Shown: in pieces, positions 23,145 to 23,447 of the stretch
How the letters are laid out: every line of letters begins with the position of its first letter
How positions within the stretch are numbered: position 1 is the stretch's first letter
Sequence record: PQ471515.1
Length of the DNA: 64,000 nucleotides
Reading direction: 5' to 3' (one strand)
Origin: Escherichia phage Turkey3
The notes under the pieces: generated by a model
What the model was told of the DNA's origin: nothing
What the model saw: the letters and a program-made list of their open reading frames with translations, nothing else
Database searches by the model: none
Translations under genes and position numbers: made by a program

Positions 23145-23447
23145 ATGAAAATTAAAATGATTAACGATTATGTACTGGTTCGTCAAATTGAAGCACAGAA
23201 TAAAAGTACTGGTGGTATTATCCTAGGAAACGTGGAACCACCATGTGTTGGTATGGTGATTTCAGTTGGTGAAGGTAAAGTACTACCTAATGGGCAAATT
23301 GCAGAACATAATATTTGTGTTGGTGATATGGTTGTATTCGGTCGTTCATCACTAAACACTCCTATCACTGAAGATCTTGGTGGTGGTGAAGACACATATT
23401 ATGTGATGAAAATTGAAGAAATTTTTGGTAAGAAATCAAATGGCTAA
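23145..23447 (+). CDS. co-chaperonin GroES/Cpn10 homolog (functional counterpart of T4 gp31)
   Basis: 100 aa; VLVRQIEAQNKSTGGIILG...VGDMVVFG resembles bacterial GroES mobile-loop and core regions; GGAGG RBS 8 nt upstream. Confidence 0.7.
   Translation: MKIKMINDYVLVRQIEAQNKSTGGIILGNVEPPCVGMVISVGEGKVLPNGQIAEHNICVGDMVVFGRSSLNTPITEDLGGGEDTYYVMKIEEIFGKKSNG

Follow-up and report, generated by a model that had tools for sequence, protein, structure and literature searches.

A roofed Cpn10/GroES co-chaperonin gene in a conserved three-gene unit of a RaK2-like jumbo coliphage

The window analyzed here (the whole 64,000-nucleotide stretch of DNA from Escherichia phage Turkey3, record PQ471515.1) carries a gene for a small protein of the Cpn10/GroES family, which is the second of three closely packed genes on the plus strand. 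The genes and features of the locus, together with the major capsid protein gene located further upstream, are the following:

13196..14371, plus strand: gene of the Gp23-family major capsid protein, 391 aa (Pfam Gp23, PF07068, 301.5 bits), 9 kb upstream of the GroES gene
22879..22899, plus strand: terminator-like hairpin, GGGGAAC...GTTCCCC followed by AAATTTTT, between a clamp-like gene and the zinc-ribbon gene; upstream boundary of the unit
22937..23143, plus strand: FmdB-family zinc-ribbon protein, 68 aa, first gene of the unit (Pfam, NCBIfam, PHROG)
23132..23136, plus strand: ribosome-binding site GGAGG of the GroES gene, 8 nt upstream of its ATG and within the last (3') part of the zinc-ribbon gene
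23145..23447, plus strand: Cpn10/GroES co-chaperonin, 100 aa plus stop, ATG start (Pfam, PHROG, PDB, AlphaFold, Foldseek)
23193..23243, plus strand: mobile-loop region, residues ~17-33 (alignment with E. coli GroES)
23274..23318, plus strand: roof beta-hairpin, residues ~44-58, GKVLPNGQIAEHNIC, as long as its counterpart in E. coli GroES
23440..24165, plus strand: helical-repeat protein, 241 aa (phrog_13349, 'virion structural protein', 7e-111; PHROG, AlphaFold)
24167..24192, no single strand: bidirectional intrinsic-terminator-like hairpin, scoring on both strands, between the unit and convergent virion-protein genes

A megablast search with positions 21500-25600 of the window retrieved eight Escherichia phages (EC.P1, BF17, WPEC3, fEgEco12, WPEC5, Ecwhy_1, TH47, and vB_Ec-M-J) at 99.3-99.8% identity over the full length of the query, as well as 121Q, PBECO4-type and related phages at ~83% identity. 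The relatives of the window are RaK2-like jumbo myoviruses of 350-385 kb, and the window itself belongs to a RaK2-like jumbo coliphage, with 99.8% identity to EC.P1, BF17, and fEgEco12. From the DNA polymerase gene onward, the annotation of fEgEco12 is in register with the window, and it names the three genes of the unit "CxxC-CXXC-SSSS domain-containing protein", "co-chaperone GroES", and "virion structural protein".

The GroES gene was found exactly where the initial annotation had placed it (23145-23447), with an ATG start codon and a GGAGG Shine-Dalgarno sequence, and the two strings that had been quoted as GroES core patterns, KSTGGIILG and VGDMVVFG, are residues 20-28 and 59-66 of the protein. 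In 121Q and phAPEC6, GGAGG likewise lies within the last part of the zinc-ribbon gene. A longer ORF starting with GTG (23082..23447, 121 aa) was dropped, because the ATG at 23145 has the GGAGG motif and fits the N-terminus of most homologues. The Cpn10 profile search that had been proposed as a check, and in which the lack of a hit would have refuted the annotation, was then run and returned a score clearly above threshold and well outside what chance would give: Pfam Cpn10 (PF00166) matches with 61.1 bits against a gathering score of 21.1 (E=1.1e-16), with residues 2-96 covering profile positions 1-92 of 93. The protein also matches PHROG 3188 'co-chaperonin GroES' (9.9e-27), and phmmer against PDB sequences produced 18 Cpn10/GroES matches with E-values down to 1.5e-11. 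AlphaFold modeling, for which 21 members of the clade were used, yielded a structure with a mean pLDDT of 78. A Foldseek search of the PDB with this model places cellular Cpn10/GroES proteins in all of the first 30 ranks (probability 1.00, TM-scores 0.62-0.73, E-values down to 4.5e-7), many of them from complexes with GroEL (such as 1aon, 5opx, and 4pko). Sequence and predicted fold agree, and the gene encodes a real Cpn10/GroES-type protein. No second co-chaperonin was detected among the 353 stop-to-stop ORFs of the window, either by phmmer with the phage GroES, E. coli GroES, and T4 gp31 or by hmmsearch with the clade profile.

Protein identity to homologues in other phages is 100% for fEgEco12, BF17, and Ecwhy_1, 92% for 121Q, 76% for RaK2, and 53% for both GAP32 and CBB. 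The high divergence from cellular GroES might be read as the mark of a decaying, functionless relic of a captured host gene; this reading is hardly credible, however, as the gene is under purifying selection (dN/dS 0.09 vs phage 121Q), an intact ORF is present in ~80 phage records, whose identities span 100% to 40%, its functional motifs are invariant, and conservation extends to the ribosome-binding site and the gene overlaps.

The initial annotation had called the protein bacterial-type. This description holds for its architecture, which is that of cellular co-chaperonins, but overstates its closeness to bacterial GroES. On the one hand, the phage protein resembles E. coli GroES in its length of ~100 aa, in the G-G-I-(V/I)-L loop that lies in register, in a roof hairpin of equal length, and in a predicted beta-barrel fold (TM-score ~0.66 to PDB 1AON). 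On the other hand, BLASTP against E. coli GroES (E=1e-14) aligned residues 1-65 with 37% identity but not the C-terminal third of the phage protein, which is barely alignable. The 13 NCBIfam GroES models all match, but none comes near its cut-off; NF001527 scores highest, with 54.7 bits vs 120. Moreover, there is no equivalent of E. coli Tyr71, the E. coli loop segment A-A-A-K-S-T-R-G is replaced by V-E-P-P-C-V-G, and the groES-groEL pairing of the E. coli type is absent, the phage gene adjoining the genes for the zinc-ribbon protein and the helical-repeat virion protein instead. A search of 5.8 billion proteins recovered just 24 clusters, with identities from 100% down to 51%; those with names are jumbo-phage proteins, and several lie on long contigs of up to ~360 kb. 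The protein belongs to a jumbo-phage-specific Cpn10 clade, whose C-terminus is a conserved F-G-K-K tail. A subgroup made up of Escherichia and Klebsiella phages additionally has a 4-residue insertion, LGGG, relative to E. coli GroES.

Alignment of 23 sequences places G23-G24-I25-I26-L27 of the phage protein in register with G23-G24-I25-V26-L27 of E. coli GroES; G24 and I25 are invariant in all 23, and G23 and L27 are conserved in at least 90%. According to PMC5575113, I25 of GroES touches GroEL, and its mutation abolishes binding. The phage loop is 2 residues shorter than that of E. coli, and the return segment V-E-P-P-C-V-G is specific to the clade, all of whose members have E31 and P33 and at least 90% of which have C34. 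A shorter loop with a Pro-Pro-Cys segment could alter the affinity for GroEL. In the AlphaFold model, confidence is lowest at the loop (mean pLDDT 51 for residues 21-30), as would be expected for a flexible segment, and the roof region is predicted with a mean pLDDT of ~91. The stretch forming the roof, between the conserved VG-G and VGD motifs, aligns with E. coli GroES without gaps.

We also compared the protein with other phage co-chaperonins. The initial view that it is not of the T4 gp31 type proved sound. There is no significant sequence similarity to gp31 (BLASTP E=0.2; phmmer E=1.9; profile comparison P=0.005 over 43 columns), the query used for gp31 being identical in sequence to PDB 1G31. 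The overall folds are related, with gp31 appearing in the Foldseek results at E=1.6e-4 in rank 31, after the best 30 cellular Cpn10 matches. The roof hairpin is missing in T4 gp31 and RB49 CocO, and the folding cavity of the T4 gp31-GroEL complex is enlarged (PMC5649160). Thus, gp31 and CocO (PDB 1G31 and 2CGT) are roofless, and gp31 has an extended loop, whereas the window GroES keeps its roof and has a loop shorter than that of E. coli GroES. What it probably shares with them, judging by analogy, is its job: a lid for the GroEL of the host, supplied by a myovirus whose capsid protein is of the Gp23 family. A second Cpn10 occurs in Mimasvirus-type phages (CBB_131 and its GAP32 homologue), which is likewise a member of the Cpn10 family and has a G-G-I-L-L loop. 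It is nevertheless of another lineage and found at another locus, adjoining a tyrosyl-tRNA synthetase gene; it stands nearer to the GroES of enterobacteria (44% to one from Salmonella) and lacks ~8 roof residues. This second type was not found in the Escherichia and Klebsiella phages, nor among the ORFs of the window. Marine et al. (2017) described GroES genes from marine viromes, most of which have no viral GroEL with them (PMC5649160). These genes are mostly environmental sequences of unknown host, and several of their clusters are roofless or have polar residues in the tripeptide; by comparison, the window GroES has the canonical motif as well as the roof.

The genes on both sides of GroES were then examined. 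The upstream gene had been described as encoding an FmdB zinc ribbon, and the profile searches agree: Zn_ribbon_8 (PF09723) scores 42.5 bits vs a threshold of 34.4, and TIGR02605 44.1 vs 31.3. The protein also matches phrog_13665 (2e-39). It has four cysteines, arranged as C8-x4-C13 (Cx4C rather than CxxC) and C32-x2-C35, and its gene has a dN/dS of 0.033 vs 121Q. The proposal of a small operon is supported by the tight spacing of the genes and by the hairpins that bracket them. The zinc-ribbon stop codon ends 1 nt before the GroES ATG, a spacing that recurs in other genera. As had been noted, the downstream gene overlaps GroES; its ATG lies 8 nt inside the GroES gene, within ATGGCTAA. This 8-nt overlap is the same sequence in 121Q, phAPEC6, GAP32, and CBB and reads ATGCATAA in RaK2; given the overlap, GroES and the downstream gene are probably translationally coupled. 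Both bracketing hairpins are G+C-rich and have T-tracts. The upstream one is kept in 121Q and phAPEC6, and in RaK2 it shows compensatory changes (GGGGAAA...TTTCCCC); in GAP32 and CBB, a phosphoesterase gene stands upstream in place of the hairpin arrangement. The downstream hairpin is kept in 121Q, RaK2, GAP32, and CBB with compensatory stem changes. A further hairpin at 23239-23258, inside the GroES gene, was rejected as a terminator: it lies in the sequence coding for the conserved segment P-P-C-V-G-M-V, contains no more than 3 G-C pairs, is followed by a poor T-tract, and is attributable to chance.

The RaK2-like relatives have the same neighborhood in common, namely the zinc ribbon, GroES, the overlapping helical-repeat gene, the convergent virion-protein pair, and RNase H. 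The position of GroES is kept in every genus examined, i.e. Asteriusvirus, Alcyoneusvirus, and Mimasvirus, and in a Vibrio jumbo phage. This distant Vibrio phage has no zinc ribbon, yet the gene after GroES still encodes a helical-repeat homologue (hhalign probability 99.7%), in which two of the repeat units are absent. The GroES gene sits among genes for morphogenesis and replication. An octamer resembling a T4 late promoter, TATAAATA, is located at 22870-22877 and precedes the upstream hairpin; the same octamer lies 44-59 nt upstream of the scaffold-like, capsid, and zinc-ribbon genes. With 3 occurrences in 5.4 kb of spacer (68% A+T) vs 2.0 expected (P=0.32), it is a lead only, and because it lacks statistical support, co-expression of the unit with the capsid genes is unproven. 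Sigma-70-like promoter matches in the region showed no excess (16 vs a shuffled expectation of 13.2).

The downstream protein had been assigned three SHOCT-like repeats. Three conserved I-T-x-x-E-Y motifs are indeed present (at residues 85, 104, and 137), whereas membership of the SHOCT family failed: PF09851 scores 8.9 bits (E=1.8) for the whole protein and 13.3 bits (E=0.07) for residues 71-153, below its threshold of 27. Only 4 of 27 homologues reached E<=1, the best being 0.058. Furthermore, SHOCT stands for 'Short C-terminal domain', while the motifs here occupy residues 85-150 of 241. The name therefore describes a resemblance, and the proposed membership is not supported; apart from this label, the main interpretation of the initial annotation was right. 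Matches to GvpG and DMAP_binding were as weak as that to SHOCT, and no Pfam or NCBIfam family was found for the protein. Its AlphaFold model (pLDDT 82) consists of nine helices, a beta-hairpin, more helices, and a disordered tail, and each I-T-x-x-E-Y motif starts an alpha-helix in a predicted array of helical hairpins. Profile self-comparison for internal repeats gave one marginal pair (72-100 vs 124-152, P=0.006). The model had no match in the PDB (best E=0.43, TPR-like noise), and its matches in BFVD are uncharacterized phage proteins only. The label "virion structural protein" goes back to the detection of the RaK2 homologue, gp105, in virions by mass spectrometry (5 peptides, 21.7% coverage; RaK2 mass spectrometry supplement). 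No homologue appears in the virion lists of CBB and phAPEC6, which show the neighboring convergent pair at high coverage. The dN/dS of the downstream gene is 0.07 vs 121Q.

The close association of these genes raises the alternative that GroES acts without GroEL, as an assembly factor with the zinc-ribbon and helical-repeat proteins as partners, for instance as a chaperone or scaffold for the latter virion protein. Such a role would be in keeping with the conservation of the 8-nt overlap across genera, with a pairing of GroES and helical-repeat gene that persists even in the Vibrio phage that has no zinc ribbon, with the strong purifying selection on all three genes, and with the presence of the RaK2 homologue in virions. 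However, no part of the loop is more conserved than the tripeptide that contacts GroEL and the glycines next to it, a pattern hard to explain otherwise than by GroEL binding. In addition, the core gene order is collinear across the phage group, so that adjacency alone is weak evidence, and neither CBB nor phAPEC6 virions yielded the downstream protein. We consider this alternative quite improbable.

If the protein binds GroEL, the next question is whose GroEL it would serve. E. coli GroEL was used as a tblastn query against 50,697 phage records, 252 of which matched. Escherichia is outside the ten commonest organism names among these matches, and the tenth name accounts for 7 records; since the Escherichia RaK2-like records number 33, GroEL must be missing from at least 27 of them. 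The Escherichia RaK2-like phages were not recovered in this search of phage records, and no Cpn60 gene is adjacent to GroES. Among the matches listed, those from Klebsiella phages come from unrelated phages of ~255 kb. As the search yielded no GroEL for this phage group, the protein's likely partner is the GroEL of the host. The opposite arrangement, in which the protein would be the lid of a phage-encoded chaperonin, has precedents: the distant Vibrio phage 2.275.O has a GroEL in addition to its syntenic GroES, and some viral metagenome contigs hold GroES-GroEL pairs (PMC5649160). The Vibrio phage GroEL is, however, 69% identical to E. coli GroEL and encoded at a distant locus, and it looks separately and recently acquired. 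Together with the missing Cpn60 neighbor, the failure of the tblastn search to recover the Escherichia RaK2-like group, and the window ORFs, which include no further Cpn10 relative, this makes a phage chaperonin as the partner very unlikely here.

With regard to the client, the Gp23-family capsid protein is accompanied in the window by a T4-type portal protein and a prohead protease. In T4 and RB49, folding of gp23 requires the phage co-chaperonin (gp31 or CocO) acting with host GroEL (PMC5649160), and the authors of the CBB study propose the same role for their phage (PMC5259590). The phAPEC6 report gives 1620 copies of the capsid protein per capsid (PMC7247149), a number that points to a heavy demand on folding. 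The virion proteins identified by mass spectrometry in RaK2, CBB, and phAPEC6 do not include GroES, which fits an assembly factor.

We therefore favor, with a probability of roughly three in four, the reading that the gene encodes a functional phage co-chaperonin, which forms a heptameric lid on host GroEL for the folding of phage proteins, likely including the capsid protein. In this scheme, the protein would be expressed from a compact, terminator-bracketed, and translationally coupled unit together with the zinc-ribbon and helical-repeat proteins. Seven subunits would assemble into a GroES-like lid and dock on host GroEL via the G-G-I-I-L motif of the mobile loop, and the infected cell would thereby have its own supply of co-chaperonin for phage proteins. 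By analogy with T4 gp23 and gp31, the likeliest client would be the Gp23-family major capsid protein. Since the roof is kept, the cage would presumably be of ordinary size, which would suit the 391-aa capsid protein, much smaller than T4 gp23 (521 aa). A counterpoint to the co-chaperonin reading is that E. coli has its own GroES and that the cage is not obviously enlarged, so that a phage copy is not obviously needed. The divergence from E. coli GroES and the altered loop also weigh against it.

Another possibility is that the protein re-tunes or hijacks host GroEL instead of aiding capsid folding, competing with host GroES and so starving host processes or blunting chaperone-dependent defenses. 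The shorter, more rigid loop (V-E-P-P-C-V-G) and the F-G-K-K C-terminus could change the binding kinetics, and a capsid protein of 391 aa should fit the normal cage under a retained roof, for which a special lid is not obviously needed. Nevertheless, nothing in the analysis ties the gene to host shut-off or defense, and its location among morphogenesis and replication genes speaks against this reading. The characterized proteins gp31 and CocO serve capsid protein folding (PMC5649160) and, according to PMC5259590, which cites Keppel 2002, can replace GroES. We regard such re-tuning of host GroEL as unlikely. More speculatively, the clade might represent a third independent adaptation of the GroEL lid beside gp31 and CocO, with altered kinetics serving the 1620-copy capsid; the features that would define such a lid are the short V-E-P-P-C-V-G loop, the invariant Glu and Pro, the near-invariant Cys, the roof, and the F-G-K-K tail. 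Alternatively, the coupled helical-repeat virion protein might be a dedicated client or cofactor. Both of these readings are improbable.

The gene is already known, being annotated as co-chaperonin GroES in dozens of public phage genomes, and since the identical protein carries the name co-chaperone GroES, the finding itself is already public. The naming dates back to the RaK2 and GAP32 genome papers: the supplement of the RaK2 paper lists ORF104 as "10 kDa chaperonin GroS", and the GroES label is found on RaK2 ORF104, GAP32_262 (with a Pfam Cpn10 note), 121Q gp615, CBB_268, and fEgEco12 g361. The CBB paper also weighs its GroES-like genes against T4 gp31 and RB49 CocO (PMC5259590). Our literature search found no functional experiment on the GroES of the jumbo-phage Cpn10 clade. 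As a recognizable member of an annotated co-chaperonin family, the gene has small discovery value; it is of modest use as a reminder that a GroEL lid of the phage's own recurs among large myoviruses with Gp23-type capsids, and that in the RaK2-like lineage this lid has an ordinary, roofed architecture. In the records of some relatives, the gene is entered as 'hypothetical protein' or has a start site that makes the N-terminus longer.

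A second Cpn10 gene, distinct from the GroES gene of the window (23145..23447), is carried by Pectobacterium phage CBB:

L010 (a CBB locus), 5408-5689: CBB_131, adjoining the tyrosyl-tRNA synthetase gene

Homologues of CBB_131 were found in the jumbo phage GAP32 and in Erwinia, Yersinia and Serratia jumbo phages, and the gene is absent from the Escherichia and Klebsiella phages. Enterobacterial GroES is a nearer relation of CBB_131 than of the syntenic GroES. About eight residues of the roof hairpin are apparently missing from CBB_131, as they are from the phage co-chaperonins gp31 (T4) and CocO (RB49). 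In a distant relative, Vibrio phage 2.275.O._10N.286.54.E11, the syntenic GroES gene is kept and the zinc ribbon is missing; this phage encodes both GroES and GroEL, at separate loci, and its GroEL (record positions 206909-208471) is 69% identical to that of E. coli.

Weak relatives of the zinc-ribbon protein (22937..23143, +) occur in many T4-like coliphages (~44% identity over 43 aa), where they are annotated as 'FmdB-like transcriptional regulator'. In phages 121Q and Ecwhy_1, the zinc-ribbon gene itself is mislabelled 'type I antifreeze protein'. The genes on either side of the GroES unit are as follows:

22138..22869 (+): gene annotated as 'sliding clamp protein' in phage fEgEco12
24210..24899 (-): phrog_9326 paralogue, converging on the GroES unit
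24915..25514 (-): neighbouring phrog_9326 paralogue, also converging on the unit

The product of the clamp-annotated gene matched no Pfam or NCBIfam family, and its homologue in phAPEC6, gp215c, is included in the virion mass-spectrometry list of that phage (5 peptides, 26%); for a replication clamp, either observation would be unexpected. Neither phrog_9326 gene matched a Pfam family. Virions are rich in homologues of this pair (RaK2 gp106w/gp107w, CBB_270/CBB_271 and phAPEC6 gp210/gp211), with peptide coverage of up to 91%, and RaK2 gp106w and gp107w are proposed as tail tube candidates.

An exact promoter-like motif, TATAAATA, lies 44-59 nt upstream of three genes:

11935 (+): upstream of the scaffold-like gene
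13144 (+): upstream of the Gp23 capsid gene
22870 (+): upstream of the zinc-ribbon gene

The count of TATAAATA in A+T-rich spacers showed no excess over chance (expected 2.0, P=0.32).

Two further regions of the window are of note:

14516..15613 (+): 365-aa ORF just after the capsid gene
27243..29545 (+): large terminase region

A treble-clef zinc finger (DUF4379, 26.8 bits) was identified in the 365-aa protein, which also matched HypA weakly. The corresponding position in fEgEco12 is occupied by two genes, one short and hypothetical, the other for a GIY-YIG nuclease. Upstream of the ORF, the coordinates of the two phages are shifted by ~710 nt, which suggests that this is a variable spot, possibly shaped by a mobile element. 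The terminase region is annotated in fEgEco12 as three consecutive overlapping ORFs resembling pieces of T4 gp17, which could mean that the gene is split, frameshifted or interrupted by an intervening element; two gp17-domain proteins have been reported in CBB (PMC5259590).
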